48,461 nt of DNA from IMG/VR virus record IMGVR_UViG_2778261094_000010, positions 1-48,461 of that record; one strand, written 5' to 3'. The stretch comes from a virus. Lineage: Duplodnaviria > Heunggongvirae > Uroviricota > Caudoviricetes. Every line of letters starts with the position of its first letter. The stretch's first letter is position 1. A model generated the notes under the pieces. That model was not told the origin of the DNA and searched no databases. It saw only the letters and a program-made list of their open reading frames with translations. The position numbers were made by a program, and so were the translations under genes. Below, piece after piece: positions 18,612 to 38,426 of the stretch.

Positions 18612-18620
18612 GAATATTTC
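18601..18620. repeat. Left attachment junction (attL-like): exact 7-bp core TTGGTAA at 18605..18611 plus imperfect flanking match
   Basis: TTGGTAAgAAtATT here versus TTGGTAAaAAaATT at 33522..33535; marks the boundary between the terL C-fragment and satellite DNA. Confidence 0.65.
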
Positions 18621-19047: not shown

Positions 19048-19128
19048 AAAAACATCCCTGAAAGTGGGTACCGGTAATACTGAAAATTTATTCCATTAAA
19101 TGAGCATTGTCCTCTCTCATCCATTCCG

Positions 19129-20790
19129 TTACACACCATCAAACGCCGCAAGCCGCTCTTTGTGGCTGTCGCTCATATCGAATGCAAATTCCTCATGCTC
19201 TGCCTGGAATGTGCCAAACGCCATCAGCGCCGCAACGCTCGGGTCTATCTTGTTGGATGATTTTTTCTTGTTCGGCTTGATATTGGCGTTCGCGTCACTC
19301 TGCATCACAACATTACTCATTGACCAGGCCAGCACCGGATCGCCACGATGCACAATCACCTTCCGGTTAACAAAAACTTCGAACGATTTCGCCGCCGGAC
19401 TGAAACGAAGGTATGTTTGCGGGAACGGCTCCACCTCAAATCCTGCCCCCTGTAGCTGCGTCCTCAGGTGCGTGGCGTTCCATGTATCGAAGCCCACCAG
19501 CCTGATATTGAAATTCTCTGCATCCGCCATGATGTCATCACGGATACGGTCATAATCAATGCAGTCACCCGGTGTTGTGCGTATCCAGCCCGCCTTTACC
19601 CACTGGCGATAGATGGCGCGGTTTTTATTGGCGGGGTTCTGTAGCTGAAATTCAGGCAGATAGTGACGGGAAACCAGCATAATCTTTTTACCGACCGGAA
19701 AGGCATAGCACACGCTGGAAATATCGCTGGTTGATGATAAGTCCAGCCCCGCGTAGCACTCCTGCCCGTATAAATCCGCCTCCGCGAACGTTCCGGCGCA
19801 CTCCGCCCATGCACCGTTACCCATCCACGGCGTAGCCCCCTGACACCAGATATTGAATCGCTTGGTGAGCATTTCCACCCACTGCGACGGAATACCCCGC
19901 GCTTTCTGGATGGTTGAGGCCAGTTTTTCACGATCGACGGAAACATCGATATTGGGATTCGCCTTTATCCACATCGCCGGATCGTCAACCTCGCTTTCAT
20001 CATCCAGCTCGTAAATCAGCACGAACATGGATTCGTTCACCTCTTCACCATCCAGTATCTGGCAGCAATAGTCATAGTGTTGTTTACAGGCTGAAACAAC
20101 GTTGCTCCCCGATGTGGTGATGGCAAATAACAGCCCCTCCGGACGCGCCCCCATTCCCAGTTCAAGCGCGGAATAAACCCCGTTGTCAGGGTGCAGGTGA
20201 TATTCATCCACAATGGCAAGGCTCGGGTTTGTACCTTCAATGGTTGCCGCTTTTGCTGCCAGTGGCTTTAACAGGCTGTTGGTTTTCGGGTGTATCACCT
20301 TGTGTGCCTGAATATTTACCCGCTTTCGTAACGGTCGGGATAAAAGGCACATCTGACGCGCATCATCAAACACGATCCGCGCCTGATCACGACTCACGGC
20401 GGCGGTGTAAATATCCTGCTGCCCGTTTTCCATAACCAGAAACCAGTTAGCCAGGATAGCGGCGACCGTGGATTTGGCATTTTTTCGCGGCACTTCAATG
20501 AATGCGCTGGTGTATTTGCGCCGTCCGGTGGCCTTAACCTTAAAGCCCAGGATGCACGCAAAGGCGAACTGCTGCCACGGCTCCAGCTCAATGGGGCTAC
20601 CGCGCATTGCGCCTTTTACGTGCGGACACACCCTGGAAAAGGCAATAAACCGCTCCACGACCTCCGGATCGAACGTGTAAAGGGGGTTTTCAAGGTCAGA
20701 AAAATACCGTTTAACGGCCTGTTTCAGTCGTTTACAGGCCGTAATTTTGCCGTTTTTTACGCCTTCTGCGTACTCATGCCAGGCGGTCAA
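19129..20790 (-). CDS. terL: Satellite terminase large subunit (intact)
   Basis: 553 aa with N-terminal ATPase and C-terminal nuclease domain (AGLDLSSTSD, KIDPSVAALMAF); apparent TTG start at 20788..20790 overlapping the TerS stop, preceded by a GAGGAAGAGGA ribosome-binding site. Confidence 0.9.
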   Translation of the reverse strand: MTAWHEYAEGVKNGKITACKRLKQAVKRYFSDLENPLYTFDPEVVERFIAFSRVCPHVKGAMRGSPIELEPWQQFAFACILGFKVKATGRRKYTSAFIEVPRKNAKSTVAAILANWFLVMENGQQDIYTAAVSRDQARIVFDDARQMCLLSRPLRKRVNIQAHKVIHPKTNSLLKPLAAKAATIEGTNPSLAIVDEYHLHPDNGVYSALELGMGARPEGLLFAITTSGSNVVSACKQHYDYCCQILDGEEVNESMFVLIYELDDESEVDDPAMWIKANPNIDVSVDREKLASTIQKARGIPSQWVEMLTKRFNIWCQGATPWMGNGAWAECAGTFAEADLYGQECYAGLDLSSTSDISSVCYAFPVGKKIMLVSRHYLPEFQLQNPANKNRAIYRQWVKAGWIRTTPGDCIDYDRIRDDIMADAENFNIRLVGFDTWNATHLRTQLQGAGFEVEPFPQTYLRFSPAAKSFEVFVNRKVIVHRGDPVLAWSMSNVVMQSDANANIKPNKKKSSNKIDPSVAALMAFGTFQAEHEEFAFDMSDSHKERLAAFDGV

Positions 20791-21130
20791 GCTCGTCCTC
20801 TTCCTCTGTTTCCGGTGGATTTCTGCGGCGACTTACCGGGTCAAAACCCAGCAAAGAAGCCATTTTGATCATTATTCTTTCAGCGTCAGCCTTTGCGCTC
20901 AGGGCGGGGTTTCTGCTCTCGCTGCCCTGACTGTTAACAATGCTGAACCCGCGCGTGGCAAGGTCTTCGACGGCTTTGCGGTATATGGAGTAGTTAACAC
21001 AATACAGCTCCAGATTGCTCCAGTCGGCGGGGGTAAGGTCTTCCCGTCCGGAAAGCTGGCGCGATTTTTCCTTCCACTGCCTGACCGCGATTTCATCCAG
21101 GTAAGCGGGGGCTTTTGGTGGTCTTGCCAT
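20774..21130 (-). CDS. terS: Satellite terminase small subunit (P27-like family)
   Basis: Translation from MARPPKAPAYLDEIAVRQW resembles P27-family small terminases; start assigned to the ATG at 21130. Confidence 0.8.
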   Translation of the reverse strand: MARPPKAPAYLDEIAVRQWKEKSRQLSGREDLTPADWSNLELYCVNYSIYRKAVEDLATRGFSIVNSQGSESRNPALSAKADAERIMIKMASLLGFDPVSRRRNPPETEEEDELDRLA

Positions 21131-21418
21131 GTTCTTTTTTCGCCCAATTATTTTCAAAAAAATTCCCGTGCACAAAAATTTGAGGAGGCGGTCGGTGTCC
21201 GGCAGGGACGGTTTCGTCCTGAAAACCACCCCCACCCCCTCTGACGGCCTCACCAGCGATTGCGAAAACATTCCATGACCTCGCGGTCACGGTCGGTTAA
21301 TCACTTCGCTGTGGTGCGTTTTGTGCGCCCTGTCCTGTTGGCTTTGTGCCCTGTCTCCTGTGTCTTCCATAAGTCACGCTGCCTTATCAGTCCACGTATC
21401 AGCCTGGTTTGCTCCTGT

Positions 21419-21859
21419 TCAGTCATCATCGCCATACATCCAGTCGTTACGGTGTGCTGCCCGTTCTTCCTGCTCGCGATACATGCCCGCCTTACGGTTC
21501 GCTTTCGTGGCTGGATCTTCCCGTGTCGTCTTACGGTTGTGGCACGTCTGGCACAATGCCTGGTGGTTCCACTCAGGCCAGAAGAGAACATCACCGCCGC
21601 CATTGATGGGGATGATGTGATCCACCACAAGAGCTGGCGTATAAATCCCCTTAGCCAGACAACGCACGCATAACGGGTTTTTGCTCAGGTACAGGGCGCG
21701 GTATTTGTCCCACTGTCGGGAATACCCGCGCGCGCGGCGGTGTCCCCGTCTGGCATCCTCTGCACGCCATGCAGCCCGTCTGTGCTCTTCACACTTGCCG
21801 GACTTCACGCGCTTATTACAGCCCGGCTCAGTGCATCGCCTTAATGGTTGCCACGGCAT
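21419..21859 (-). CDS. HNH endonuclease (terminase-associated)
   Basis: Cys-rich zinc-finger motifs (CNKRVKSGKCEEH, CVRC, CQTCH) and HNH-like His/Asn; located upstream of terS-terL as in HK97-like packaging modules. Confidence 0.85.
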   Translation of the reverse strand: MPWQPLRRCTEPGCNKRVKSGKCEEHRRAAWRAEDARRGHRRARGYSRQWDKYRALYLSKNPLCVRCLAKGIYTPALVVDHIIPINGGGDVLFWPEWNHQALCQTCHNRKTTREDPATKANRKAGMYREQEERAAHRNDWMYGDDD

Positions 21860-22161
21860 CAGTACACCCCCACATCACGATAAACCGACCAGAGCGCAGA
21901 AATAGCCATAGGCAGTTCAGACTGCTCCACTGGTGAAACTGCTTCCCTGTTCTCGTACAGGAAAGCGATGTACATCAGGCAACCAACACGCATTGCCGGG
22001 GTAAATTCCAGCCCGTCTTCAAAACGTTTCCCGATATGCTTCTGGCAGGCTTCCAGCGCCGCATCGGTATACATTTTCAGAAGTTCGCCTTCACCGGATA
22101 AATCATCATCAAGTCGAAGATGTGCCCTGACTTCATCAGGTGTAATTCTGGCTTCACTCAT
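21859..22161 (-). CDS. Satellite head-tail connector protein (gp6-like)
   Basis: Translation from MSEARITPDEVRAHLRLDDDL parallels the helper gp6-like protein (MLLKEEEIKSHLRLDD); GGGAGA ribosome-binding site before the ATG at 22161. Confidence 0.7.
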   Translation of the reverse strand: MSEARITPDEVRAHLRLDDDLSGEGELLKMYTDAALEACQKHIGKRFEDGLEFTPAMRVGCLMYIAFLYENREAVSPVEQSELPMAISALWSVYRDVGVY

Positions 22162-23368
22162 CTTTTCTCCCTTTAATTTCCACAGTCTGTTTCCATGCCT
22201 GGCTGAACTCATCACCACCTTCACGCGGCGGCATACCCTCGCGTTCGCGAGCTTCGTTCGGATTCATGATCCCGCTCTTAATCCCTTTCTCATACGTGGC
22301 ATAACGTTCGGTGGGTGTGGCGCGCAGTAAATCGGCTGAATCAAACTCAACCAGATAACGGGTACCAGGTACGGGAGAAGTCACCAGCAAAGCGGCCTTG
22401 ATTTGCTGTTCGAAGTTCGCCAGCCACGGGCGCATTGTCATGGTCAGAAATGCGCGGCTCGCCTCACTGAAATTGCTGTAGGTGCTGTTGCTGTATTCCT
22501 GAAGAAAAATCGGCGACACGTTGAACATCCTGGCGATGTCTTCAATGGAGAAGCGACGGGAGGCCAGCCATTCCGCATCCTGGTTACTCATCCCCAGCTG
22601 CCTGTAATCCATGCCCCCTTCAAGGATTGGCGTTTTTCCGGCATTTTTCGCCCCCTTGTAGCGTTCCAGTGCGTCTAATGCCTGTTTACCTTTCACGCCG
22701 TCCAGCCATTCACCTGACGTGATAATCCCTGCCGCCATCATGCCATCTTTCATAATGCTGGCTCCGTGACGCTGTTGAGCAAGGCCAAGCCCCAGCGCCT
22801 CACGGCAAATCGTGACGGGGGAACGCCCCAGAAAGCCATCATCCGAGGCATAGCGGAGATGCAGAACTTCTTCCTGTAAATACGTGCGCACCGTTCCTGT
22901 ACAGGGTTCGGTGATGGTATAGCGGTATTTGTGTGTGCCTGTGCGTTCCGGTACAACACACCCCGGCGCATAAGGATGAAGTGATTTTGGCTGCCCGTCC
23001 CGCCCCCACTCAATAACCGCATAGGCGTTACCGTTCAGCAGGCAGTGACGCATCATTGTGCGTTTAAACTGGTAAGGTGTCAGGCACGAATTAGGCTGCT
23101 CATTCAGCAGAATATCTACCGGGTGACTGTCCAGCCATTCCCGCGCCTCTCTGCCCTTATCATTGCGTACCAGATACAGGTAACACGGCATCGTGGCCAC
23201 CGCCTCAGCGATGACAGAAACCGCGTTCATCACAGCAGGCAATGATTCAGCCGTCCCGGCAGAAACATATTCTCCGGATCCGGTATTTGGTACACCAGAC
23301 AACGCCAGAAAATCATCAATGGACAGGTTACGCAGATCGCTTTTTTTACGACTAAAAGGCCACCACAT
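22154..23368 (-). CDS. Satellite portal protein (HK97 family)
   Basis: Portal-like sequence; start assigned to the ATG at 23368 (MWWPFSRKK), one nt after the protease stop. Confidence 0.85.
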   Translation of the reverse strand: MWWPFSRKKSDLRNLSIDDFLALSGVPNTGSGEYVSAGTAESLPAVMNAVSVIAEAVATMPCYLYLVRNDKGREAREWLDSHPVDILLNEQPNSCLTPYQFKRTMMRHCLLNGNAYAVIEWGRDGQPKSLHPYAPGCVVPERTGTHKYRYTITEPCTGTVRTYLQEEVLHLRYASDDGFLGRSPVTICREALGLGLAQQRHGASIMKDGMMAAGIITSGEWLDGVKGKQALDALERYKGAKNAGKTPILEGGMDYRQLGMSNQDAEWLASRRFSIEDIARMFNVSPIFLQEYSNSTYSNFSEASRAFLTMTMRPWLANFEQQIKAALLVTSPVPGTRYLVEFDSADLLRATPTERYATYEKGIKSGIMNPNEAREREGMPPREGGDEFSQAWKQTVEIKGRKDE

Positions 23369-23369
23369 A

Positions 23370-23930
23370 TCACAACCCCGCCAGTTCAGCCCAGCGATGA
23401 CGATTATTTCCTGCCGGGCGTAATTCAGGGTACTGTGCAAACAACGAACGGTGGGCAATCTCCACGCCGGATTCGGGATAAGCAGGCATCGATGTTATCG
23501 TGATTTCACGGAGTTCTGCGGCGGTTACAGTACGCAGATACGGTTTTTGCGCGATATTCCACTCCTCGCATAATGCGCGAAAGCCAAAGCTCATTCCTGT
23601 AATATCGCCACGTTCCACCAGCGTAAGCACATCTTTTCCAAGCTGGGTATTTGGCGGTGTCAGTTCAAAACGTAGCCCGGTGTTATCCTCAGTCAGTACC
23701 AGTGAGCCGGATTTGGTACGCCCCAGCAGTTGGGTATAGTCATGCTCATACAGACAGCGCACATCATTACCCGCCGCCAGATAGTCAGCAAAAGCCCCCG
23801 GCGTGAACTGTTCGCGAAACTCGTCCCAGATAATTTCTGAAAGGCTGTTCCAGCGAACGGCATAACCCACCAGTTTTTTATCGCTGGCGGTCAGTTCAGA
23901 TGTACGGATTTCAAAATCGGTGTTTTTCAT
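23370..23930 (-). CDS. Satellite prohead protease (HK97 family)
   Basis: Translation from MKNTDFEIRTSELTASDKKLVGYAVRWN with conserved His/Ser regions (YEHD, GMSFGF); GGAG ribosome-binding site before the ATG at 23930. Confidence 0.85.
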   Translation of the reverse strand: MKNTDFEIRTSELTASDKKLVGYAVRWNSLSEIIWDEFREQFTPGAFADYLAAGNDVRCLYEHDYTQLLGRTKSGSLVLTEDNTGLRFELTPPNTQLGKDVLTLVERGDITGMSFGFRALCEEWNIAQKPYLRTVTAAELREITITSMPAYPESGVEIAHRSLFAQYPELRPAGNNRHRWAELAGL

Positions 23931-23979
23931 CGGTGTACTCCATAAAGCTGAAAAAGGAGGCCGAAGCCCCCTTTGCTCA

Positions 23980-25125
23980 TTACTTGCCAGCCTGAATTTC
24001 CAGAATCTTGATGGCGTTCGAATCCACCACACCACCGCCCAGATATTTCTGGGTATAGATGTTAATGAATCCAGGCTCGCTGAAATCCGGACGGGTACGC
24101 GTACCGGTTTTATGGTCAACGATGAAATAACCGCGCTTAAAGTCACCGACTGCAATCACACCGTCCGGCATAAATTCCAGATATTCAACCGGAAGCCCCA
24201 GCAGAGAATCAGGATCACCAGCCTGTAAACGATCGCGCCAGATGTAATCACCAGTGGCATTTTTCAGTTTTTGTGCGGAGGCGGCTGTATTTGAGTTCAT
24301 CACCCATACAGCTTTTTTGCGGTACTTATTGCGCAGCGTAAATTTCAGGTCAATCAGCATATCGGCGCTGAGACTGCCAGTCACTTTTTTCGTCTGGAGC
24401 GTACCGAAAGGACGGGTTTTGTCATTATCCGTAGTGCGCGGGAAAGTCAGGAAACCTTTGGCTTTTTTCTCGCCATCACCGGAAACCAGATCCGTTTCTT
24501 CGGTATCAACGAAAGTGTCGCCAATTTCAGAAGATAACCAGCCCATAATATCGACTTCGGAAAAATCGATAATTTCCTGAGTGGTTTTCGGGTAAGCGTA
24601 GATCGGATACAGGCGGATACTGACTTCATTCAGTTTTGGGGTTGCCGTCTGGTTACGTGCCGCACCTTCTTCGCCGTGTCCCACGACCGCACCCCCGGCA
24701 GAAACCAGTTGCTTAAATTCATTACTGTGAATGGTTTTAACAGTACAGATTTTACGCATCACCGACTCATCAGAAAGCTGACGCATAATTTCTCTGTTCA
24801 GTTCCGGGATAACCGTATAACCACCATCAGCCGGAACACTGCCGGACAGGTTGCGGGTTTCCCCGGTCAGAATGTAAGAGCGTAGCTCGTCTTTGGTGAT
24901 TTTATCTTCGACGGGAACACCAGGCTGGTTACGTTCTTCATCAGCCACAGACTCGAGGCGGGAAATTTCTGTGTCGAGGGAATCGGCTTTTGCACGCAGT
25001 TCATCAAACTGTTTGCCCTCGTCATCGGTTAGACTGCGGTTTTCACTGTCGGCTTTTTCCAGCAGGGATCGCATCTGGTTTTTCAGGGCGGTTTTTTGCT
25101 GGCGGAGTTCGATTAATTTCTTCAT
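23980..25125 (-). CDS. Satellite major capsid protein (HK97 fold)
   Basis: 381 aa; N-terminal coiled-coil delta-like domain followed by an HK97 core (ADGGYTVIPEL); homologous in outline to the helper capsid protein but clearly diverged. Confidence 0.9.
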   Translation of the reverse strand: MKKLIELRQQKTALKNQMRSLLEKADSENRSLTDDEGKQFDELRAKADSLDTEISRLESVADEERNQPGVPVEDKITKDELRSYILTGETRNLSGSVPADGGYTVIPELNREIMRQLSDESVMRKICTVKTIHSNEFKQLVSAGGAVVGHGEEGAARNQTATPKLNEVSIRLYPIYAYPKTTQEIIDFSEVDIMGWLSSEIGDTFVDTEETDLVSGDGEKKAKGFLTFPRTTDNDKTRPFGTLQTKKVTGSLSADMLIDLKFTLRNKYRKKAVWVMNSNTAASAQKLKNATGDYIWRDRLQAGDPDSLLGLPVEYLEFMPDGVIAVGDFKRGYFIVDHKTGTRTRPDFSEPGFINIYTQKYLGGGVVDSNAIKILEIQAGK

Positions 25126-25360
25126 GAAGGTTTTCTCGCATTGGTTAAGATTCAGGACGTGAAACCAACACGGGGGGAGCGCCGCCCGACACTCTCGGCA
25201 TCTCGCAGATCAACCCGGCATCGCGCAGGGGGTCAGGCGGCATTGTGGCGGCTCACGTCTGAGTGCCACACGCCAACATATACATAAAAATCAGTATGTA
25301 AACATCAGCCAGAATCACCGAACAACCTGGAACAACCACGAACAAATAATTTACAAAACC

Positions 25361-25396
25361 TGAAAAAAGGCCCGGAAAAAATCCGGGCCTTTATCG
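25361..25396 (-). terminator. Rho-independent terminator (bidirectional hairpin GGCCCGG-N7-CCGGGCC flanked by A and T runs)
   Basis: Perfect 7-bp stem with A6 upstream and T-rich downstream, immediately 3' of the minus-strand gene ending at 25399. Confidence 0.7.
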
Positions 25397-25398
25397 CT

Positions 25399-25647
25399 TT
25401 ATTGTTTCACTGGCTCCCGCATTCTGCGTCTTATTTTCCACAAATATTCGATCATCGCTTCCACCTGCTCACGGTTGGTTGCGAAAATTTCCCCGGTCAG
25501 TGAGCTACGCAGAAAATCATGATGATCCACAAAAAATAACGCATCGGAAGAAAGCAACCGACGATATTTTTTTGCTGTCGTGGTTTCCAGATCATCAAAA
25601 CCATGAAGCTTTTTATGTTGCTGAACTTCTTCAAATGTCACTGGCAT
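25399..25647 (-). CDS. Hypothetical satellite protein
   Basis: 82 aa ORF overlapping the upstream gene end and followed by a terminator; no recognisable motif. Confidence 0.4.
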   Translation of the reverse strand: MPVTFEEVQQHKKLHGFDDLETTTAKKYRRLLSSDALFFVDHHDFLRSSLTGEIFATNREQVEAMIEYLWKIRRRMREPVKQ

Positions 25648-26180
25648 GTATCCCCCTTTGCTGCCCGGCGCTGGCGCTTGTGCTTCTCATTCAGCACCAT
25701 CAGCCGTGTTTCTGCCTCCTGCTGTTCCTGTGGTGTCACTTCCCCACATGGCTGGCCTTTCAGGTCGTAACGTGCGCCACCAGCTATCAGGGCGCGGTAA
25801 TAGCGCGGAGACTGCGCATAGGATGCCAGCGTCGCACGTAATACCCCCGACCCGAATGCCAGCCCCCTGACGGCGATATCCTGCATCAGGTCGTCGAATA
25901 TCCCCACCTTAAGCGGCTTCGGTGCTTTATGGCTGAATAAGTCAGGCCACATCTCAGTGAGGCGGTTAACGCGTCGGCGGTTTTTGCGCTGCCTTTTGGT
26001 CATATGCTGCCACGGTGTCGCCCCTGCGGTCTTCTGTTTGCGGCTCTGCTGTGCGTTCTGATTATCGGGTATCACTTTATGCGCCGATGTGGTTTTATCC
26101 TGCTCTTGCGCCGCCTGCGTCGTTTTCTGCGGCGTGCCGTAAATGCCTTTCGGCTTCCGGTTAATGGTCAGCGTTGTCAT
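25638..26180 (-). CDS. ProQ/FinO-family RNA-binding protein (putative RNA chaperone)
   Basis: Basic N-terminus, then a FinO/ProQ-like core (PLKVGIFDDL...RYDLKG). Confidence 0.55.
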   Translation of the reverse strand: MTTLTINRKPKGIYGTPQKTTQAAQEQDKTTSAHKVIPDNQNAQQSRKQKTAGATPWQHMTKRQRKNRRRVNRLTEMWPDLFSHKAPKPLKVGIFDDLMQDIAVRGLAFGSGVLRATLASYAQSPRYYRALIAGGARYDLKGQPCGEVTPQEQQEAETRLMVLNEKHKRQRRAAKGDTCQ

Positions 26181-26216
26181 GCCTTCCCCCGTAATTACTC
26201 TGTTCGCTGTTGTGAA

Positions 26217-26642
26217 TTAAAACGGTATGTTATCCCCGTACGGGTCATCGTGCTGGCTTGTCTGTTGTTTTGCCCTGTTCAGTGCGTCAGTGGCCTGGCC
26301 CTGTTGACCTTTTTTGCCGCCCGGTCGCGCCGTTCGCGCACTGATTACGCTGTCTGCAATAACCTGCCAGCCCTGCCGCGTTTCCCCGTTCTGGCCTGTC
26401 CACTGGCTCACCTGCATGTTACCCGCCACGCTCACCAGTTCGCCTTTGTGGTGTTTTGCCAGTGCGTCGGCCTGTCTGCCAAACGCCAGGACAGATAACC
26501 ACATCGTCGCCGTTCCGTCATCTGCCTGGCTGCACGGCAGGGGAACCGCCATACTCGCCATCGCCATTTGTGTCCCTTTGCTGGTGGTCTTTAACTGCGG
26601 GTCAGCCACCAGCCGCCCGTAAGCCGCTATCTGTGCTGTCAT
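26217..26642 (-). CDS. ssb: Single-stranded DNA-binding protein (SSB)
   Basis: OB-fold-like N-terminal region, Gly/Gln-rich linker and an acidic C-terminal tail ending DDPYGDNIPF (compare the canonical SSB DDDIPF tail). Confidence 0.7.
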   Translation of the reverse strand: MTAQIAAYGRLVADPQLKTTSKGTQMAMASMAVPLPCSQADDGTATMWLSVLAFGRQADALAKHHKGELVSVAGNMQVSQWTGQNGETRQGWQVIADSVISARTARPGGKKGQQGQATDALNRAKQQTSQHDDPYGDNIPF

Positions 26643-26706
26643 GCTGTCTGTTCTCCGGTTTTAACGTTGATTGTTACGCTTGTTTACACCCTTACGGTGA
26701 AATTCT

Positions 26707-26829
26707 GCGGGTTATAATCGCACTTTTGCGGGTTATAACTGCCGTTTTGCGGGTTACGTGCGGGTTATTGATTTCCTTTTTATTCATACAGTTAATGCAC
26801 TTATACACAGGATAACCCGCATAACCCGC
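26707..26829. repeat. Iteron cluster A (putative satellite replication origin): 4 direct GCGGGTTA(T/C) repeats, AT-rich spacer, 2 inverted ATAACCCGC copies
   Basis: Direct copies at 26707..26715, 26728..26736, 26749..26757 and 26760..26768; inverted copies at 26812..26829; located just downstream of the replication protein gene. Confidence 0.7.
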
Positions 26830-26852
26830 AACTTTTTACATCACACAGGGGG

Positions 26853-28976
26853 TTAATCTTCTGCCTCAGGCTGGAACATCAGCACGTAAAAAACATGCTG
26901 CTTCCCCCCAATTTTGCTGAGCGCCTTTTTCTTGTAACGGCGGTCGTTCCCCTTTTCCAGCATCCCCGCCGCATCAAGCGCTCTTGCAAAATGCGACGGG
27001 TTAAATCCCTGTGCGATCTCACCTTCAAACACATGCGGGAACGTGTAAAAACGGAACTCGTCATCTTCGTTTCTGATACTCCCCTTTCTGTATCCGGCAA
27101 GTTCTTTAATCGGTAAATCACGCTCGTCGGTGTTGGGCCACGGAAGGTATCTGCTGAATCCGAACGACGCTAAAAAAGCCTCTGCCTGTTCAACCATCTG
27201 TTTAAATTCCCTGTTACCCGTGCCGAACTCCTTCACCCAGGCATTAAAATTATGCTGTATGGCATCGCGGCACGCCTGAACATCCCAGCCAGTAATATGA
27301 CCGGACAACACTAACGCCGCCTCAAGCATGGCAAATCGCTCCCCCACACGGTGAACCTGTTCGCCGTAGCTCTCCGGTATCAGGTTGCGCCACCGTTCAC
27401 GGCATGCCCTTACCGTGTCCTTTGCTTCCTGCTGGTGGTTTGCCAGCCATTTAACCCACTCTCGACCCGCCGCCCCGTGATTTTCTGTCCAGGCATCCTT
27501 TAACGCGTCTGCGTGCGCCTTTCCGGTGCTGTATTCGTGAAACTGCGTGGCTTTTTCCATCGGCACGTTAAGCAGGCGGACAAGCTGCCCCGCCTTGACT
27601 TTTATCCCCTCCGTTTTGAGGAATGTTTCAACGTCCATTTCTCCGGTGCTGATTGCCACCGTGCGCCAGTGTTTGATCTCCCTGTTGCCGCCGTCCTTCG
27701 CCCCCTGTAATTTCCCCGAACCGTTAAACAGCGTATAGGCTGACGTGGACACCTCCCGCGCGTTTCCGGCCTGACCTATTTCATCCAGGGGTAACAGCCC
27801 ATCATTATGTGCTTCGGCCTCGTTGGCGATACCTAACGCCGTGCCGTACCAGGTCAGCCGTTGTGCGTCCGGCTCTCCCCATAAACTGGATGCGATGTTC
27901 TGTGTGGTGGTTTTCCCTGCCGATGACTGTTCGAAAAGATGTACCCCGAAGCCGTCAGCCCCCACCAGCCCGATTAATGGTGCGGATAACGATACCGCCA
28001 CACCCAGCATCATGGACGGATTACCACCAGCCAGCCGCGCCACGGTATCGCGCCAACCCTCCGCCGTTCCTGCCACGGAATAGCCATTAACAGCAGCCGT
28101 TTTTCCGGTAAACAGGGCTGGCTTTTCGCAATCACCAATGACCGAACCGTCCGGCATGATGTACGCGCCAAAATGCCAGCCCGTTGTTGTGCTTAACTGC
28201 CATTCCTCATGGCTTCCGCTTAACTGCATCCAGTCAGCCAGGATAGCCCTGTATTTGCCGTTAGTTGTTACGTTCAGTCCGTGGTCTTTCAGCAGCCGCC
28301 AGCCGTCACGGTCGCCAATGCCACCGCACGGAACCGCCATTGTGATGACTTCATGGTTTGCTAATTTTTTCCAGCGCATCACGCGGTAATGCTCTTTACC
28401 GATTGTCCCCGTTCCCAGTAGTTCAAGCGGGGAACATAACCACGTCTCAGGCCGGATAATTTCGCCTGACTGCTTATCCACTTTTGGCGTTACCCAGAAA
28501 ACACCATCGGCGCGACTTTCAACGCGGGGCTTTAATTCATCATCGCCCTGGCTTTCTGTAATTTTTTTCTTTAAAGGCAACACCAGACTTTCCCCGCGCT
28601 CGTATTCGTCTTTGAGGCGAGGCAACTGGTCGGATAAATCCGCCGGGCTGGTGTCAGTTATACCCGCGTATTCGTATACGGTCTTCACGCCAGCCACAGC
28701 CAGCAACGTGACGATCTGTGTAAGGCTACGTTCAGTGATGTGCCCTGCGCGGTAAACACGCACACACTGACGGCTATCATCAATAATTTGATAACCGGTA
28801 ATATCTTTCAGGTGTTCATCTGACAGAACGACAGGTGGCACATTGTCGGCGGCAATATGCTTACCTGCCCATTCCTGCCACTCTTTCGCATGGCTCCACG
28901 CATCACTACCCGCAAAGATGATAACCTCCGTCATTTTGTCGGCTGGCTGGTGCTTTAAGTTTGGTGCGCGCTTCAT
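26853..28976 (-). CDS. Replication protein, DUF927-type primase/helicase (P4 alpha-like or PICI Rep-like) with Walker A motif
   Basis: 707 aa; Walker A-like SSAGKTT within a DUF927-like helicase core; adjacent iteron cluster; ATGA-type overlap with the upstream ORF. Confidence 0.75.
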   Translation of the reverse strand: MKRAPNLKHQPADKMTEVIIFAGSDAWSHAKEWQEWAGKHIAADNVPPVVLSDEHLKDITGYQIIDDSRQCVRVYRAGHITERSLTQIVTLLAVAGVKTVYEYAGITDTSPADLSDQLPRLKDEYERGESLVLPLKKKITESQGDDELKPRVESRADGVFWVTPKVDKQSGEIIRPETWLCSPLELLGTGTIGKEHYRVMRWKKLANHEVITMAVPCGGIGDRDGWRLLKDHGLNVTTNGKYRAILADWMQLSGSHEEWQLSTTTGWHFGAYIMPDGSVIGDCEKPALFTGKTAAVNGYSVAGTAEGWRDTVARLAGGNPSMMLGVAVSLSAPLIGLVGADGFGVHLFEQSSAGKTTTQNIASSLWGEPDAQRLTWYGTALGIANEAEAHNDGLLPLDEIGQAGNAREVSTSAYTLFNGSGKLQGAKDGGNREIKHWRTVAISTGEMDVETFLKTEGIKVKAGQLVRLLNVPMEKATQFHEYSTGKAHADALKDAWTENHGAAGREWVKWLANHQQEAKDTVRACRERWRNLIPESYGEQVHRVGERFAMLEAALVLSGHITGWDVQACRDAIQHNFNAWVKEFGTGNREFKQMVEQAEAFLASFGFSRYLPWPNTDERDLPIKELAGYRKGSIRNEDDEFRFYTFPHVFEGEIAQGFNPSHFARALDAAGMLEKGNDRRYKKKALSKIGGKQHVFYVLMFQPEAED

Positions 28977-29287
28977 TTTGCCTTTCCCCGTTCACGAATA
29001 ATTTCACGTACTGCCTTAATGCGTTCCATTCCTGTAACGCGCATGATTCTGTCGATGTCGCTTAATTCTGCTGGTGGTGCTTTGCTTACCAGGGGGAACT
29101 CCCTTTCAAAGCGCATATGCGACGACACGCAGGGATGCGCATAACCTTCGCGGATATAGGTCACGCGAAAATCATCGACGGTTTTAATCGTTATCGTGCT
29201 GCCGTATTTATCCCGGAAAATATCGCCGGGGCGGATTTCAGGCCGAGCGTGACCGCTGGCAGTAAAGCCAGAATTTTTCTTTTTCAT
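28973..29287 (-). CDS. Hypothetical satellite protein
   Basis: Start assigned to the ATG at 29287 (MKKKNSGF); translationally coupled to the replication gene. Confidence 0.4.
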   Translation of the reverse strand: MKKKNSGFTASGHARPEIRPGDIFRDKYGSTITIKTVDDFRVTYIREGYAHPCVSSHMRFEREFPLVSKAPPAELSDIDRIMRVTGMERIKAVREIIRERGKAK

Positions 29288-29294
29288 GTTTTTT

Positions 29295-29543
29295 TTACTC
29301 CAGAGGCAGCTTTTTAGCGGCGAGCTCAATATCAGATGTCAGAGAAACCTGTGTATTTGCCAGGTCTAACAACAAAGAAATAAGAATTTCTTCTCTGCTA
29401 TCGGATTTATCGGTGCTAAGGCTGTTCATCCACATATTGACGACTTCCCTGATTTTTTTCGCAGAGTGCAGGGCTTCAAATGCCAGGCCTTCAATATCAT
29501 GTTTATTTCGCATAATCGCCCCCGCCATTTTCACAATCAGCAA
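29295..29543 (-). CDS. Hypothetical satellite protein
   Basis: 82 aa ORF in the early operon; no recognisable motif. Confidence 0.35.
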   Translation of the reverse strand: MLIVKMAGAIMRNKHDIEGLAFEALHSAKKIREVVNMWMNSLSTDKSDSREEILISLLLDLANTQVSLTSDIELAAKKLPLE

Positions 29544-29748
29544 TCAGGATGGCTTTTGCCTCATTCAGCGCCATATCAGCACTAAATTGCATAAGAGCCA
29601 GTGAGTGAGGAACGAAAGCCCCGGTATATTCTGTTTCGCTGGTGGCGTGCTTATGCGCCTTGTCTGCGATAACAGAAATATCAATCAGCGCGTGCATCAG
29701 CGTTTTGATGGCTTCGGCGGCTGCGTCCGGTGTGGTTTTATTATGCAT
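29503..29748 (-). CDS. Hypothetical satellite protein
   Basis: 81 aa ORF in the early operon; no recognisable motif. Confidence 0.35.
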   Translation of the reverse strand: MHNKTTPDAAAEAIKTLMHALIDISVIADKAHKHATSETEYTGAFVPHSLALMQFSADMALNEAKAILIADCENGGGDYAK

Positions 29749-29944
29749 AGGTTTCCCCCTGGCGAATACGGGCGGCGAATACCATCACGCAGCCATCAGG
29801 AGATTGCTGACGCGCTTCCTGTTCGCTGGTGGCCTCAATGGTAATCACGCGCGGTTGTGCCGTGCTCAGGGCGATAAAACGCCAGATGTATTTATTCAGG
29901 TTGTACGAGTCCCGCCCTTGCGGGTGTCTGGTATAATTTCTCAT
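29741..29944 (-). CDS. Hypothetical small protein, first gene of the minus-strand early operon
   Basis: 67-codon ORF (MRNYTRHPQGRDSYNL...) with a GAGG ribosome-binding site, transcribed divergently from the operator region. The listed 349-aa ORF is treated as a read-through artefact. Confidence 0.4.
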   Translation of the reverse strand: MRNYTRHPQGRDSYNLNKYIWRFIALSTAQPRVITIEATSEQEARQQSPDGCVMVFAARIRQGETYA

Positions 29945-30041
29945 AGCTACCTCGATACGCTTTCTATCGTTGGTGGTTAGAAGCCCGGTTAGTGTTAGCG
30001 CACTGCCGGGTTTCGTCGTTTCTGCACCTTGCATCAGTAAG

Positions 30042-30093
30042 GTGTTGAACACCAATTTAAGCCCTGGTGTTAAACACGTCAAGTGTTGAACAC
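30042..30093. promoter_or_regulatory. Operator-like triple palindrome GTGTT(G/A)AACAC in a divergent promoter region
   Basis: Near-palindromic 11-mers at 30042..30052, 30067..30077 and 30083..30093, between the minus-strand early operon and the plus-strand small regulator gene. Confidence 0.6.
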
Positions 30094-30143
30094 TTATTTT
30101 TTTTCCTGCATACTGCATTTGTTTTTTGTAAGGGGTACACAAC

Positions 30144-30323
30144 ATGGCAACAAAAGCAGTAAACGCAAAATCACAAACAGTTGCGGCAAGGGTTCCGCAT
30201 GAAGTTATGAACAATGTTGAGGCGGTAAAAATGCCTGGTGAAAGTACAGGGCAGTTTGTAACAGCAGCATTAAAGCGAGAAGTTGAATACCGCCAGCGTC
30301 GCAAGGCCAAAGAGCAGGAATAA
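30144..30323 (+). CDS. Small putative DNA-binding regulator (59 aa)
   Basis: ATG at 30144 preceded by an AAGGGG ribosome-binding site, immediately downstream of the operator palindromes; small basic protein with a KREVEYRQRRKAKEQE tail. Confidence 0.5.
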   Translation: MATKAVNAKSQTVAARVPHEVMNNVEAVKMPGESTGQFVTAALKREVEYRQRRKAKEQE

Positions 30324-30380
30324 CCATCACCAGCGCCGTGGTGTAAGGTATTACGGCGCATTGCTATGCAGGACAACACA

Positions 30381-30554
30381 ATGACCGATAAAGAATTGAC
30401 CAAAACATTATCACCGACACGGAAAAGACGGCGCAGAAAGATAGAGCATGAATCAGAAAGATTCGCACCTTGTTCGTTTGCTCTTGAGAAATTCCTTAAA
30501 GAGCGCAGGAAAAAACTCTCGTTGCAAACCTTGGAACGAACCAAATCTGACTGA
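30381..30554 (+). CDS. Hypothetical small basic protein
   Basis: 57-codon ORF (MTDKELTKTLSPTRKRRRRK...) with an AGGA ribosome-binding site, followed by tandem terminators. Confidence 0.3.
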   Translation: MTDKELTKTLSPTRKRRRRKIEHESERFAPCSFALEKFLKERRKKLSLQTLERTKSD

Positions 30555-30620
30555 TCACATTGCCCACCAGCCGCAAATGTGGCATTGTTGGTGATGCTTT
30601 TGTTTTCCCTTGTTCCCACT

Positions 30621-30650
30621 GGCGACCCTTTTGCGGTCGCCTTTGTTTTG
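30621..30650 (+). terminator. Rho-independent terminator (GGCGACC-CTTTTGC-GGTCGCC followed by TTTGTTTTG)
   Basis: Perfect 7-bp stem followed by a T tract, downstream of the plus-strand small ORFs. Confidence 0.7.
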
Positions 30651-30745
30651 CCTGTTATCCTGCAACTATGGTCATTTCGACCACGGTTGATATAATCCCC
30701 CCGCACAGATTCATTTTTTGCGCAGTAGGTTAATTGTTCGCAAGG

Positions 30746-30780
30746 GCGCTCCGGTAACGGGGCGCTTTTTGTTTTTACCC
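30746..30780 (+). terminator. Rho-independent terminator (8-bp stem with GTAA tetraloop followed by TTTTTGTTTTT)
   Basis: GCGCTCCG-GTAA-CGGGGCGC hairpin (one G-U pair) followed by a T-rich run; second of two tandem terminators. Confidence 0.65.
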
Positions 30781-30934
30781 ACCAGCACAATAAAAATCTT
30801 CATTTTCCATTTTTGTAAAATTTCATGCTTTCCGGACGACTGGTAATATGTCATTTTTTAGCAGAAGATTTTGCCTTGCTGGTGGGTAGCTTCCCGGTCA
30901 ACACGATGTACCGTATAATCAACACCGCGTGTGG

Positions 30935-31531
30935 TTACTGAATACGCTCACCAAAGTAAAACTCAGGCTGGTATTCACGTATCAGCCTTTTTTCTTCTTC
31001 CTCCAGTTCACGCTTTTTGCGCTTACATGCCTGTAGCTCCCTCCCCTTCTCGCTGGCACTTATCTGGTATTGCTCTTTGCGGCGGGAAAAATCCTGTAAT
31101 GCTCCCCACGGGATACCATAAGCCCCCGTTTTTCTGATACCCGGTATCACATTTCTGAATACCCAATTACTGAAACGATGGGCGAACGTGCCAGGATTAA
31201 CAGCTTTGCGACTTCTGGCGATCAACTTGTAAAAACCTGATTCTGATACAACATTCCAACTTCTGGCACCACCACGCTTACCTGAATGACCCTCGGTTAA
31301 AGCTAGGGTCATTACCTCATCGCTATCCAGAACTGAAACAGCATCGGTAACGTTGCTAATTTCCAGCGCCGCACACACATCAGCGCCAACAAACCACGGA
31401 TCGCCGTTCAGATACACCACGCGAACGTTCACACTATCAAAGCGCAGAACGACCAGATCACGAATATCACAGAATTTTTTCACATGACGTGCGTCACCCT
31501 TGCCCGTCGCGGCAATATTTTTATTCATCAC
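30935..31531 (-). CDS. Bro-N domain protein (antirepressor-like)
   Basis: Bro-N signature (FDSVNVRVVYLNGDPWFVGADVCAALEI...SGFYKLIARSRK) with a Lys/Glu-rich coiled C-terminus. Confidence 0.7.
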   Translation of the reverse strand: MMNKNIAATGKGDARHVKKFCDIRDLVVLRFDSVNVRVVYLNGDPWFVGADVCAALEISNVTDAVSVLDSDEVMTLALTEGHSGKRGGARSWNVVSESGFYKLIARSRKAVNPGTFAHRFSNWVFRNVIPGIRKTGAYGIPWGALQDFSRRKEQYQISASEKGRELQACKRKKRELEEEEKRLIREYQPEFYFGERIQ

Positions 31532-31585
31532 TTTCTACCTCACATACAAAAAACCCCGCATTGCGTGGTGCGGGGTTGTCGGTAA

Positions 31586-31864
31586 TTACTTATTGGCGTT
31601 TTTGTATGGGCTGTTTACTTCCTTTACTCCTGGCGGATGCATAACCCACCAGAGCACATCAGAGAGCAACCAGGAAACAGACACTTTCCCTAAATGAGCA
31701 CGAGCAGGAAATGCTCCCTCCTGTTCAAGTACCCAACGTCTGCTTCTTGAAAGCCCGGTACGATTGGCACACTCATGTTCGCGTATACGGCGATCATACG
31801 GTTCGCCATGTTCTTTCAGAATCTGAATGCGTTCTTCGGGTGTAGGATAAATAAATTTTTGCAT
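31586..31864 (-). CDS. AlpA-like helix-turn-helix regulator (second copy)
   Basis: Translation from MQKFIYPTPEERIQILKEHGE with an AlpA-type C-terminal helix-turn-helix (TGLSRSRRWVLEQEGAFPARAHLGKVSVSWLLSDVLWW). Confidence 0.5.
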   Translation of the reverse strand: MQKFIYPTPEERIQILKEHGEPYDRRIREHECANRTGLSRSRRWVLEQEGAFPARAHLGKVSVSWLLSDVLWWVMHPPGVKEVNSPYKNANK

Positions 31865-31927
31865 AAAAATATCACCTATAAAAAAACCCGCCAAAAGACG
31901 GGTTGATTATATCTCATTTAATTTAGT

Positions 31928-32161
31928 TCAGGGTTTCCATTCACCCTTTACCCATTCCAGCACCTCAGATAAGCGCCAGACTTTTGTTTGTGGGCCAATA
32001 CATATTTTCCGTGGAAATTTTCCTTCCTTTTCAAGTAATGCTCTGTGTCTCCTGCCAAGAGCTGTTAACCATGCACATTCATCTTCCTTAATCATCCTGT
32101 CGATTGTTTTATCATTTTCAAGTTCTTCACGCGTAACTATTTCAATCATTACCGTCACCAC
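31928..32161 (-). CDS. alpA: AlpA-family transcriptional regulator / excisionase-like protein
   Basis: 77 aa with AlpA-like helix-turn-helix (LTALGRRHRALLEKEGKFPRKICIGPQTKVWRLSEVLEWV); immediately downstream of and overlapping the integrase gene. Confidence 0.75.
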   Translation of the reverse strand: MVTVMIEIVTREELENDKTIDRMIKEDECAWLTALGRRHRALLEKEGKFPRKICIGPQTKVWRLSEVLEWVKGEWKP

Positions 32162-33350
32162 TAATTAGCTTATTCAGATAGTCGTACCACCAGTTCATAG
32201 CTTCTTTTTTTCTGTCCATATACTGACTTCTGTTATAAACCCCGGCAACACCGCCTAATGTGTGCCCAAGCAACTGTTCAACCACATTATGTTCAAAACC
32301 ATGATCACTTAGCTTTGTGGCAAACACTCTTCGCATATCATGCGCCGTCCATTTTTCCGAGTGTTTCATCCTTTTCCATGTCTTACCGATAGTTACGCTT
32401 GCCGTACACTGACGCATATCAAACCCAATCACATTTTCTTTGTTACCTGTTATTTTTTTTAACGTAACTAACCAGTTAAACATGCCATCAGGAATCGGTC
32501 TGATTATTTCCCTGCCATTTTTGCTATGATCAGCGGGAACGCGCCATAATTTCTTATCAAAATCCCACTCTACCCAGGACGACAGTAATACTTCTGACAG
32601 TCGACAACCAAAAACTACCAGGAAACGTAAAATAATTCGGTTTTCATATGATAATTCGTGATTGTCATAATCAGTATTAATACTTCGCCATAAATCTCTG
32701 ATTTCATCATCTGTTAAAACCCTGCTTCTTCGCGCAGACTTTTTTCCCACATCACAGACCTCAAGATCATCAATTTCATGACTAATCGCGTATTTTCTTA
32801 CCCTACAAAATTTAAGCGCCTGTTTTGATATACGCAACAAAGCTCCGGCCTGTACAGGTGCTACTTTTTTTATTTTGTCAAAACACTTGATCCACATAGA
32901 TATAGAGCAATCACTAAGTGGTACATGACCAATCACCGGATAAATATGTTTACCAAAGCACTGCCTGATATGTTCTGCTCCCCTACGCTTATCCATTGCA
33001 TAATTATCAAGCCAGTATTCAAGTGCCTCACGAACGGTAACAGGTTGCAAGGTGGCTTCCCGTTCAATTTTTATCTGAATCCGTGGATCTCTGCCCTCCG
33101 CAAGCCAGGTTCGACACTGATCGCGCATCTCTCTCGCTGATTTGAGACTCAGATCAGGATATTTTCCAAGTGTCAGCCAGATGGGCGCGGTTCCCCTTCC
33201 CGCCAGTCTGTAAAAGAAAACAAAACTAACACATCCGTATTTACTGACCCGTACCGAAAGCCCGTTACCATCAGCGATGGTTTCCTGCCTCTCACTCCTG
33301 CGCCCAAGCAGGGAACGAAGTTTTTTATCGCTCAGTTTGTTTAGCGCCAT
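32142..33350 (-). CDS. int: Tyrosine integrase (P4-type site-specific recombinase)
   Basis: C-terminal catalytic motifs (HDMRRVFAT, LLGH, GVYNRSQY); start assigned to the ATG at 33350 (MALNKLSDKKL); lies about 170 bp from the right junction core. Confidence 0.9.
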   Translation of the reverse strand: MALNKLSDKKLRSLLGRRSERQETIADGNGLSVRVSKYGCVSFVFFYRLAGRGTAPIWLTLGKYPDLSLKSAREMRDQCRTWLAEGRDPRIQIKIEREATLQPVTVREALEYWLDNYAMDKRRGAEHIRQCFGKHIYPVIGHVPLSDCSISMWIKCFDKIKKVAPVQAGALLRISKQALKFCRVRKYAISHEIDDLEVCDVGKKSARRSRVLTDDEIRDLWRSINTDYDNHELSYENRIILRFLVVFGCRLSEVLLSSWVEWDFDKKLWRVPADHSKNGREIIRPIPDGMFNWLVTLKKITGNKENVIGFDMRQCTASVTIGKTWKRMKHSEKWTAHDMRRVFATKLSDHGFEHNVVEQLLGHTLGGVAGVYNRSQYMDRKKEAMNWWYDYLNKLISGDGND

Positions 33351-33517
33351 GTGATTTATAACCCGTTTTTGCAATACACAGTGCAATACACAAATGATGA
33401 AAACAGCCAGAACCTTCCAGAAAAAACAAAAACGACGAACAAGAAAAAATCTTTTTCTTTCATTTGGTTACTAAAAAAATCAGGACAGGTCGCACTGTTG
33501 TTACGGCGTGATGTTAC

Positions 33518-33537
33518 TTTCTTGGTAAAAAAATTCA
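33518..33537. repeat. Right attachment junction (attR-like): exact 7-bp core TTGGTAA at 33522..33528 plus imperfect flanking match
   Basis: Direct repeat of the 18605..18611 core; boundary between satellite DNA (integrase side) and the helper terL N-terminal fragment. Confidence 0.65.
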
Positions 33538-34549
33538 CCCGCGCAGAGACCTGTTCTTTCGCTTTTTTCGCCAGGCGACGCAGATCATCCCAGCGTTTAC
33601 AGATGCCCAGGCCGGGATTCGCTTTCTGCCAGACCGTTTCATCAAACGGATCATCTCCCTCATCGAGGGTGTAAATAATCGCAAAGTAGGAGTCGTCTTT
33701 TACCGCGCCCTCCACGTCGCTGTTATAGCCTCGCAATACCTTGATGGCGTAATCGCGTTGCTCGTAACAAATCCCTTCCTTGTTAAAGCCAGCCGTGGTG
33801 ATACCAAATAACAGGGACTGCAGACGGGCACCGGTTGCCGTTTCCAGAACGTCCCACACGTCGCGGGTTTTATGTGCATGCAGCTCATCAATAATGGCGC
33901 AGTGGATGTTCAGACCATCCAGGTTGTTTGCATCCGAGGAAAGCGGTTCAAATTTTGATGCGCTCTGCTCCTGGTAAATCGCCAGCTTGTTGAAATCAAA
34001 CAACCGCCCGAGTGTCGATCGGGCTTTTCTGACCATATTTTTGGCGTCTTCAAACACGATTCTGGCCTGGTCACGCGTGGTTGCGGCTGAATACACCTCA
34101 GCCCCGCCTTCACCATCTGCCCCCGTCATATACAGACCGATACCTGATGACAGGGTTGATTTTGCGTTTTTACGGGCGACTTCGTTGTACGCTGTCCGGA
34201 AACGGCGCACCATCACCGGGCGTCCGCTGCCATCGCTGCGCATGACAACTTCCCCGGTCTCTTCATTCACCAGCGGAATGACAAAACCAAAAATATTAAT
34301 GAGGATAAAAACATGCCAGTCCATCAGTTCAATGGGCTGACCTGCCAGCGCCCCTTTTACATGGGGCACAAATTTGTAGAAATTCAGGATGTGCTGCGCA
34401 CGGGGTTCACTGAAATAAATCCCCCGCTCTTCGCCGTACTTCAGATCATCAAGAAAACGCTGGCAGGCCAGACGGACAAATTCACCAGCGACAATTTCTC
34501 CTGCAACAACACGTTCGGCGTAGCGGATCCCGTCAGCCACTTTTGCCAT
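33522..34549 (-). pseudogene. terL: Helper prophage terminase large subunit, N-terminal ATPase-domain fragment (5' part of a terL split by the satellite)
   Basis: Translation through DETVWQKANPGLGI...ARVNFFTKK parallels satellite TerL (DDPAMWIKANPNID...EMLTKRFNIW), then runs into unrelated low-complexity sequence (VTSRRNNSATCPDFF...) after the junction at about 33522; the ORF's true stop is at 33356. Confidence 0.8.
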
Positions 34550-38176: not shown

Positions 38177-38253
38177 TGGCGCGTTGTACTGGATTCGAAC
38201 CAGTGACCGATTGCTTAGAAGGCAATTGCTCTGTCCGGCTGAGCTAACAACGC
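38177..38253 (-). tRNA. tRNA-Arg (anticodon UCU)
   Basis: Manual cloverleaf: acceptor GCGTTGT/ACAACGC, anticodon stem ATTGC/GCAAT, loop CUUCUAA, T-loop GGTTCGAATCC, 3' CCA. Confidence 0.85.
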
Positions 38254-38266
38254 AGGGTACAGATAA

Positions 38267-38343
38267 TGGACCGCCATCGAGGACTCGAACCCCGCGCAAC
38301 CAGCTCCGAAGGCTGGCGCTCTATCCTGATGAGCTAATGGCGG
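38267..38343 (-). tRNA. tRNA-Arg (anticodon UCG as parsed)
   Basis: Manual cloverleaf: acceptor CCGCCAT/ATGGCGG, anticodon stem CCAGC/GCTGG, loop CUUCGGA, T-loop GGTTCGAGTCC, 3' CCA. Confidence 0.8.
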
Positions 38344-38350
38344 TATGTGA

Positions 38351-38426
38351 TGGTGGCCCTTGCTGGATTTGAACCAGCGACCTGGCGATTATGAGTCGCT
38401 CGCTCTCACCACTGAGCTAAAGGGCC
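38351..38426 (-). tRNA. tRNA with CAU anticodon (tRNA-Ile2 lysidine type or tRNA-Met)
   Basis: Manual cloverleaf: acceptor GGCCCTT/AAGGGCC, anticodon loop CUCAUAA, T-loop GGTTCAAATCC, 3' CCA; first of three tandem tRNAs in an ileZ-argN-argO-like arrangement. Confidence 0.8.

Follow-up and report, generated by a model that had tools for sequence, protein, structure and literature searches.

The 48,461-nucleotide window analysed here (positions 1 to 48,461 of the IMG/VR virus record IMGVR_UViG_2778261094_000010, Caudoviricetes) contains, embedded in a prophage, a satellite that Pfam and NCBIfam matches and the RefSeq annotation of a 99.7% identical copy identify as a capsid-forming phage-inducible chromosomal island (cf-PICI). 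The control region of this satellite lies between two divergent genes, a minus-strand gene for a 67-aa Icd-like protein (29741..29944, ATG at 29944) and a plus-strand gene for a 59-aa protein of the YlcI/YnfO family (30144..30323), which has the Shine-Dalgarno sequence AAGGGG at 30131-36 and is our candidate repressor. A pattern search of the window with GTGTTRAACAC gave exactly three matches, all of them between these two genes, which we term O1 (GTGTTGAACAC, 30042..30052), O2 (GTGTTAAACAC, 30067..30077) and O3 (GTGTTGAACAC, 30083..30093). All three are 11-bp palindromes about an odd centre (GTGTT-N-AACAC), and the start-to-start spacings are 25 and 16 bp. By chance 0.03 matches would be expected from dinucleotide shuffles, and none of 100 shuffles contained three. 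An earlier, sequence-only reading had placed three palindromes here, between the minus-strand early operon and the plus-strand regulator gene, and the letters themselves, the search and the shuffles all bear this out.

The three sites fall precisely on promoter elements. A consensus promoter scan found a single promoter, the leftward P_L of the icd-like-to-primase operon (30054..30082, minus strand), with a -35 element TTGACG (30082-30077), a 17-bp spacer and a -10 element TAAATT (30059-30054). The predicted promoter of the 59-aa gene, P_R (30086..30114, plus strand; TTGAAC at 30086-30091, 17 bp, CATACT at 30109-30114), matches 8 of 12 consensus positions, under the threshold of the scan; its start is predicted at ~30121, and its -10 position is conserved as TATACT or CATACT in relatives. 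O1 lies 2 bp downstream of the P_L -10 element and over the predicted start of transcription (~30047), O2 takes up the P_L spacer and shares 1 bp with the -35 element, and O3 stands just upstream of the P_L -35 element and contains that of P_R. A spacer, a start of transcription and a -35 element are all positions from which a repressor acts. This arrangement is retained: across all relatives and site classes a TTGAC -35 element is conserved with a TAnnnT hexamer 17-18 bp away, despite differing sequence in between, O2 abuts the P_L -35 element in every relative, and O1 covers the P_L start at a distance of 22-26 bp from O2, upstream of it on the plus strand. Moreover, among 32 distinct close relatives O3 is invariant and O1 and O2 vary at the central base only, while positions of the O1-O2 spacer (30061-30065) vary in 6-16 of the 32; near-invariant sites beside a variable spacer leave a clear footprint of selection on the sites.

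We then compared 251 loci encoding relatives of the 59-aa protein, collected from genomes, viral contigs and metagenomes and comprising 106 distinct protein/upstream combinations. The repeated site changes together with protein residues 9-17, and all two to four copies within a locus change together. The loci fall, with no exception among the 251, into at least eight protein/site specificity classes, whose counts are not independent events since the loci are related by descent. Named by protein residues 11-16 or 11-17, these are QT[VIL]AAR with GTGTTRAACAC (148 loci, the class of the window), [KR]KLEAR with GTGTCAGCCAC (49 loci), KKIDVR with GTGTCAGACAC (2 loci), KR[FI]D[VA]R with GTGTCSGACAC or GTGTGGGACAC (19 loci), QALKAR or QSLKSR with GTGTGGYCCAC (13 loci), QK[LV]Q[AT]RA with GTGGAMTCCAC (9 loci), QSVTARI with GTGTAAGACAC in both orientations (8 loci) and, in one locus, the YlcI-like Klebsiella protein AQKKIRF with a 12-bp site of the GTGYACCCCCAC type. 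The residue most informative about the operator class is 14 (mutual information 2.45 of 2.96 bits), followed by 12 (2.05), and R16 is invariant. Residues 12, 14 and 16 are alternate positions of a beta-strand and would face the DNA in a ribbon-helix-helix (RHH) ribbon. They align in register with Q9, N11 and R13 of Arc, the residues with a role in DNA contact in that repressor.

The boundaries of what changes between classes point to the same protein. A sliding-identity comparison of the window with five relatives that belong to other classes delimits a specificity cassette at ~29960..30285, which comprises the operators with part of the leader on one side and the first ~45 codons of the 59-aa gene on the other. 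The cassette is 45-65% identical, the zone of low identity running from roughly 29980 to 30280, between flanks that are 87-100% identical. On its icd-like gene side the same five relatives are 92-100% identical at the nucleotide level, and from ~30285 onward, including the last ~14 codons of the 59-aa gene, identity is again 87-100%. The only gene within the exchanged unit is the 59-aa gene. Judged from these alignments, elements that are otherwise alike swap the regulator together with its sites, as a single unit.

The 59-aa protein scores 59.7 bits over residues 9-50 against the NCBIfam YlcI/YnfO model NF041551 (cutoff 30) and is thus a member of that family; it also belongs to PHROG 949 (phrog_949, E 4.7e-22, function unknown), which YlcI of Escherichia coli K-12 matches as well. 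An AlphaFold model built with 28 relatives (mean predicted local distance difference test score, pLDDT, 82) shows an extended stretch at 12-18 (predicted strand ~11-17), a helix at 19-28, a turn at G32-E-S34-T35 and a second helix at 35-58, and G32, E33 and S34 are invariant in the 28 relatives. This is the RHH layout of an N-terminal strand, a helix, a tight G-x-S/T turn and a helix, the strand not being called by DSSP in the monomer model, and the protein is therefore predicted to have an RHH fold. Membership of a curated RHH family was not found: Pfam returned no family for the protein, for its alignment or for 10 distant relatives, searches of the PDB sequences (phmmer and a profile search) gave chance matches only, and Foldseek against the PDB gave no meaningful structural match. 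The family is small, a search of 1.84 billion proteins yielding 81 representative clusters at E <= 0.001, and tblastn against 50,697 phage records found no match. Nor does the window, helper prophage included, encode a further homologue, so that a helper-encoded paralogue acting on the sites is unlikely. A 59-aa protein identical at 58 of 58 residues, with the same three operators, is present in a different genus, in Edwardsiella hoshinae NBRC 105699 (locus L020), in keeping with a report that cf-PICIs spread across genera (bioRxiv 10.1101/2025.02.11.637232). We also considered an RHH antitoxin of a type II toxin-antitoxin pair and rejected it, as there is no credible co-oriented partner, the downstream 62-aa open reading frame having no family match and the icd-like gene being divergent and assorting independently.

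Together, the co-variation of the operators with the beta-strand, the boundaries of the cassette and the RHH-like fold support the suggestion of the sequence-only reading that these sites are operators in the divergent control region of the satellite, as well as its naming of the 59-aa protein as a candidate binding protein. Given what the computations establish, namely site enrichment, promoter geometry, fold class and a co-variation independent of the neighbouring genes, we consider it likely that this is an autoregulated RHH repressor-operator cassette of the immunity type, in which the 59-aa protein on three palindromes silences P_L. Binding, the sign of regulation and autoregulation are what we infer from these data. 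On sequence grounds the protein very likely binds the three sites as dimers, and there is a good chance that its occupancy of O1 and O2 represses P_L and that its occupancy of O3 keeps its own production in check. A dimer at O1, on the start site, and another at O2, in the spacer and abutting the -35 element, would block RNA polymerase at P_L and so keep the icd-like, replication and packaging operon silent while the satellite is integrated, and a dimer at O3, on the P_R -35 element, would restrain synthesis of the protein itself. Residues 12 and 14 of the beta-strand would read the variable centre of the site, and the invariant R16 with the conserved N-terminal arm would probably read the conserved GTG...CAC frame. 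In kind such a mechanism is already familiar, being an RHH repressor acting on palindromic operators at divergent promoters.

The third site deserves separate consideration. O3 is probably the autoregulatory site, and its position at 30083-30093 is confined to the QTVAAR and QTIAAR alleles. In most relatives the third site stands elsewhere, 45-46 bp from O2, where it overlaps the P_R -10 element and start (TATACT followed by GTCAGCCAC). In the allele of the window (QTVAAR, 136 loci) this site has been lost, the corresponding CTGCATTTGTT at 30112-22 matching it at 3 of 11 positions, and a replacement third site is found 16 bp from O2; in the QTIAAR relatives both positions are occupied, making four sites. 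Either position should give autoregulation. Since the third-site position differs between lineages, having three operators is a trait of this allele and not of the system. The resemblance to a three-operator switch that had been noted from the sequence therefore holds for the topology, and the analogy with lambda goes no further, the O3 position being specific to part of one class. In lambda O_R, too, divergent promoters flank three sites and one of the promoters transcribes the gene of the regulator; however, O_R is bound by helix-turn-helix repressors, with two competing regulators and cooperative binding to adjacent 17-bp sites. None of these features is seen in the satellite, where the spacings are 25 and 16 bp, the cassette contains no gene for a second regulator and the position of the third site is lineage-specific. 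A 13-nt inverted repeat (30111-30123/30149-30161, 92% complementary) brackets the Shine-Dalgarno sequence and start codon of the 59-aa gene, its left arm standing where other lineages carry an operator; it may be due to chance or be a translational control element.

Several other proteins might bind these sites, and what decides between them is whether the sites change with the protein. The 67-aa Icd-like protein, which the sequence-only reading had offered as a second candidate, would in that case autoregulate its own operon, and it does match PHROG families labelled 'transcriptional repressor' (phrog_6196, E 2e-41). However, Icd-like proteins that are 94-97% identical stand beside other sites (GTGTGGCCCAC or GTGTCAGCCAC), while those beside the sites of the window can be as little as 52-56% identical, and the near-constancy of the icd-like gene across the cassette boundaries, together with the 'ash family protein' label that the gene adjoining the cassette bears in some genomes, also counts against it; this candidate was not borne out, and we regard it as extremely improbable. 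Of the regulators of Gram-negative PICIs, AlpA alone has experimental support, as an activator of downstream genes (PMC6092414), and with two AlpA-family genes upstream the sites could be AlpA binding sites through which the replication operon is turned on. Yet AlpA identity and operator class assort independently: four loci (L089, L092, L096 and L074) have AlpA proteins 96-100% identical to that of the window and other operator classes, and loci with the operators of the window have AlpA proteins 45-52% identical or no detectable match. The overlap of the sites with core promoter elements is, moreover, the geometry of a repressor, so that a role as AlpA sites is very unlikely. Hardly more can be said for iterons of a replication origin bound by the primase or an initiator, a reading to which short repeats beside a T-rich tract, ~1 kb upstream of the primase gene, lend some colour and to which we give next to no credence. 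Loci that carry GTGTCTTACAC or GTGTGGTCCAC sites encode a primase whose N-terminus is 99% identical, and the identity is 47-69% for most loci with the sites of the window; the repeats are placed precisely on -35, -10 and +1 elements, and the PICI origin has been mapped downstream of pri (PMC6092414; PMC10111431). DUF4222, too, shows no association with the sites across loci. As the sites assort independently of the Icd-like protein, AlpA, DUF4222 and the primase, the 67-aa protein, AlpA and iterons are excluded as the determinant of specificity, and a site for a host factor was ruled out since its core sequence differs from class to class.

A different kind of alternative accepts the 59-aa protein as the binder and gives it another task, as an activator or architectural factor in the main, or as a determinant by which one satellite excludes another. 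Activating or architectural roles are indeed found among RHH proteins, as in AmrZ and TraY. Exclusion of like satellites would fit the large number of specificity classes and a cassette that is nearly single-copy per genome, this cassette class being found at 505 places in 494 of 5,426 complete E. coli genomes and the flanking region at 2,202 places in 1,687 genomes, although this comparison of copies per genome is crude and uncontrolled. With O2 in the P_L spacer and O1 on the start, however, a bound protein should occlude polymerase, and we judge these alternatives unlikely.

A close parallel to repression by the 59-aa protein is the immI region of phage P22 (Arc and Mnt, with divergent Pant and Pmnt), where small RHH repressors also act on operators over back-to-back promoters and control both an early operon and their own synthesis. 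The register of the Arc beta-strand matches that of the 59-aa protein (R-W-P-R-E-V in Arc, R-V-P-x-E-V here), but the two have no significant sequence similarity (hhalign probability 4%), and immI is a phage system with two regulators and one 21-bp operator bound by a tetramer, whereas the satellite has one regulator and three 11-bp palindromes. In the PICIs of Gram-positive bacteria (the Staphylococcus aureus pathogenicity islands, SaPIs) the regulators Stl and Rpr are likewise divergent from the replication and packaging operon and placed between the integrase and replication sides; they differ in being larger, unrelated proteins inactivated by binding a helper protein (PMC6092414), while the group of the window has AlpA as its known inducer. 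YlcI (prophage DLP12) and YnfO (prophage Qin) of E. coli K-12 share NF041551 and phrog_949 with the 59-aa protein and are similar in size and predicted layout, but lie beside cos/nohD in lambdoid cryptic prophages. Finally, in the prototype cf-PICI EcCIEDL933 (L262, NZ_CP120944.1) the corresponding interval, bounded by the Bro-zone and icd-like genes, shows the same divergent orientation, with a TTGACA -35 element for P_L and two copies of GGTGACCAC that face its icd-like gene. This prototype has no YlcI-type gene and carries at that place an unannotated open reading frame for a 63-aa Arc-like RHH protein (L262 3802-3993, plus strand; PHROG 'Arc-like repressor' phrog_228, E 5e-7), a family different from that of the 59-aa protein (hhalign probability 1.5%); RefSeq annotates a low-complexity 247-aa 'hypothetical protein' antisense to it, on the minus strand (L262 3693-4436). 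It thus seems that a divergent RHH gene, accompanied by sites of its own, is a standard, replaceable part of these satellites.

Repression by the 59-aa protein would have to be overridden when the satellite is induced. In the sequence-only reading the control region would be the induction switch of the satellite and the likely target of helper signals. Published work describes induction of Gram-negative PICIs as helper-triggered expression of the activator AlpA (PMC6092414), and the cf-PICI prototype is induced likewise, via alpA (bioRxiv 10.1101/2022.09.08.507074). In the window, strong minus-strand intrinsic terminators stand directly after each of the AlpA-family genes (31904-31885 and 31577-31552), no minus-strand terminator was found between the Bro-N gene and the operators, and the satellite is co-oriented with the late operon of the helper (PMC10111431). 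The two terminators would stop leftward int/alpA transcription unless it is antiterminated, which would fit a role of AlpA as an antiterminator or read-through by helper Q-modified polymerase. With these terminators after the AlpA genes, none before the operators and the helper co-oriented, terminator-resistant transcription would cross the operators into the operon. The most plausible route of override, speculative as it is, would therefore be such leftward transcription from alpA or from the helper late operon, which would read the 59-aa gene in antisense and pass over the operators. The alternative, speculative as well, would be an anti-repressor supplied by the helper, as for SaPI Stl.

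In the set of papers that we searched we found no earlier description of a repressor for Gram-negative PICIs, nor of a function for the YlcI/YnfO family. The cassette therefore offers a concrete, testable candidate for the repressor that the Gram-negative PICI literature calls missing, with its sites mapped to the base pair, as well as a first functional hypothesis for the YlcI/YnfO family (PHROG 949) and the prediction that two residues, 12 and 14, set specificity. The specificity classes would constitute a natural, ready-made set of orthogonal repressor/operator pairs, and their swapping bears on whether satellites are 'heteroimmune'. In its widest form the proposal is that the cassette is the missing master repressor, or immunity determinant, of Gram-negative PICIs, with at least eight mutually non-cross-reacting, shuffled specificities, forming a two-layer lock with the antisense RNA described below and overridden at induction by AlpA- or Q-type terminator-resistant read-through or by a helper anti-repressor; this we put forward tentatively, as a possibility that may well fail in one part or another.

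That RNA is a predicted SymR-like cis-antisense small RNA of ~80 nt encoded on the plus strand at 29929..30028, with a promoter, a start at ~29944, two hairpins and a terminator stem at 29980-30014. Its extended -10 element TGgTATAAT (29929-37) lies within the first codons of the icd-like gene, and the RNA is complementary to the Shine-Dalgarno sequence and start codon of the icd-like mRNA. It matches the Rfam SymR family (RF01809) over its full length at 32.8 bits, under the gathering score of 61, and has a folding z-score of -4.7. In 38 diverse relatives, 14 of the 24 predicted pairs show compensatory changes, and 96.5% of cells are paired compared with 86.3% in shuffles (none of 500 reached the observed value) and 35-45% with slid partners. 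About 144 of the 907 cells are G-U on the plus strand, equivalent to A-C on the minus strand, and these many plus-strand G-U pairs indicate that the structure belongs to a plus-strand RNA. SymR is likewise a ~80-nt cis-antisense RNA whose promoter is just inside the target gene and which covers the Shine-Dalgarno sequence and start codon, but its target is symE whereas here it is the icd-like gene. The SymR-like RNA is probably a second layer of control on the icd-like operon. An Rfam scan of 18000-34000 found no immunity RNA of the C4/isrK type.

Other transcript features surround the 59-aa gene. Downstream of it, a terminator-like hairpin with a T-run (30621..30641, plus strand) may end its transcript. 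A second candidate small RNA gene lies at 30669-30780 (plus strand), between the Bro-N and 59-aa genes, with a promoter-like TGGTCA-16-TATAAT with a TG and a strong terminator at 30742-30769. Conservation of its promoter and hairpins, compensatory changes included, extends to 17 distinct relatives, and the candidate has no Rfam match. Two open reading frames in this area, one of 349 aa (29741-30790, minus strand) and one of 62 aa (30366-30554, plus strand), were judged not to be genes, having no family matches and changes untypical of coding sequence. The DNA of the 62-aa frame is conserved, yet its differences are mostly amino-acid-changing. The 349-aa frame enters the icd-like gene in frame and runs antisense to the 59-aa gene. 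In a near-identical copy NCBI extends the Icd-like coding sequence to 135 aa, which is probably an annotation artefact. The NCBIfam label of the Icd-like protein, the presumed regulated target of the 59-aa protein as the first product of the P_L operon, is cell division inhibitor.

The remainder of the satellite is organised as expected for its kind. On the minus strand it encodes an integrase (32142-33386), two AlpA-family proteins (31928-32161 and 31586-31894) and a Bro-N protein (30935-31531) on one side of the control region and, on the other, the Icd-like protein, followed downstream by DUF4222, a DUF927 primase (26853-28976), SSB and ProQ-like proteins, then capsid, protease, portal, connector, HNH and TerS proteins and a complete TerL of its own (19129-20790). 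The satellite, ~14.8 kb in length, splits the large terminase gene of the prophage into an N-part (33356-34549), which encodes the ATPase domain and the first portion of the nuclease domain, and a C-part (17875-18600), which encodes the remaining nuclease domain, both on the minus strand. With int, alpA, a primase, its own capsid, portal, protease, HNH, TerS and TerL, and its insertion in a prophage late gene, it is a helper-embedded Gram-negative cf-PICI, an arrangement described by Tommasini et al. (PMC10111431) and also matching that of bioRxiv 10.1101/2022.09.08.507074. Elsewhere in the prophage there is a cluster of three tRNA genes (38177-38426, minus strand), for Arg-TCT, Arg-TCG and Met-CAT.
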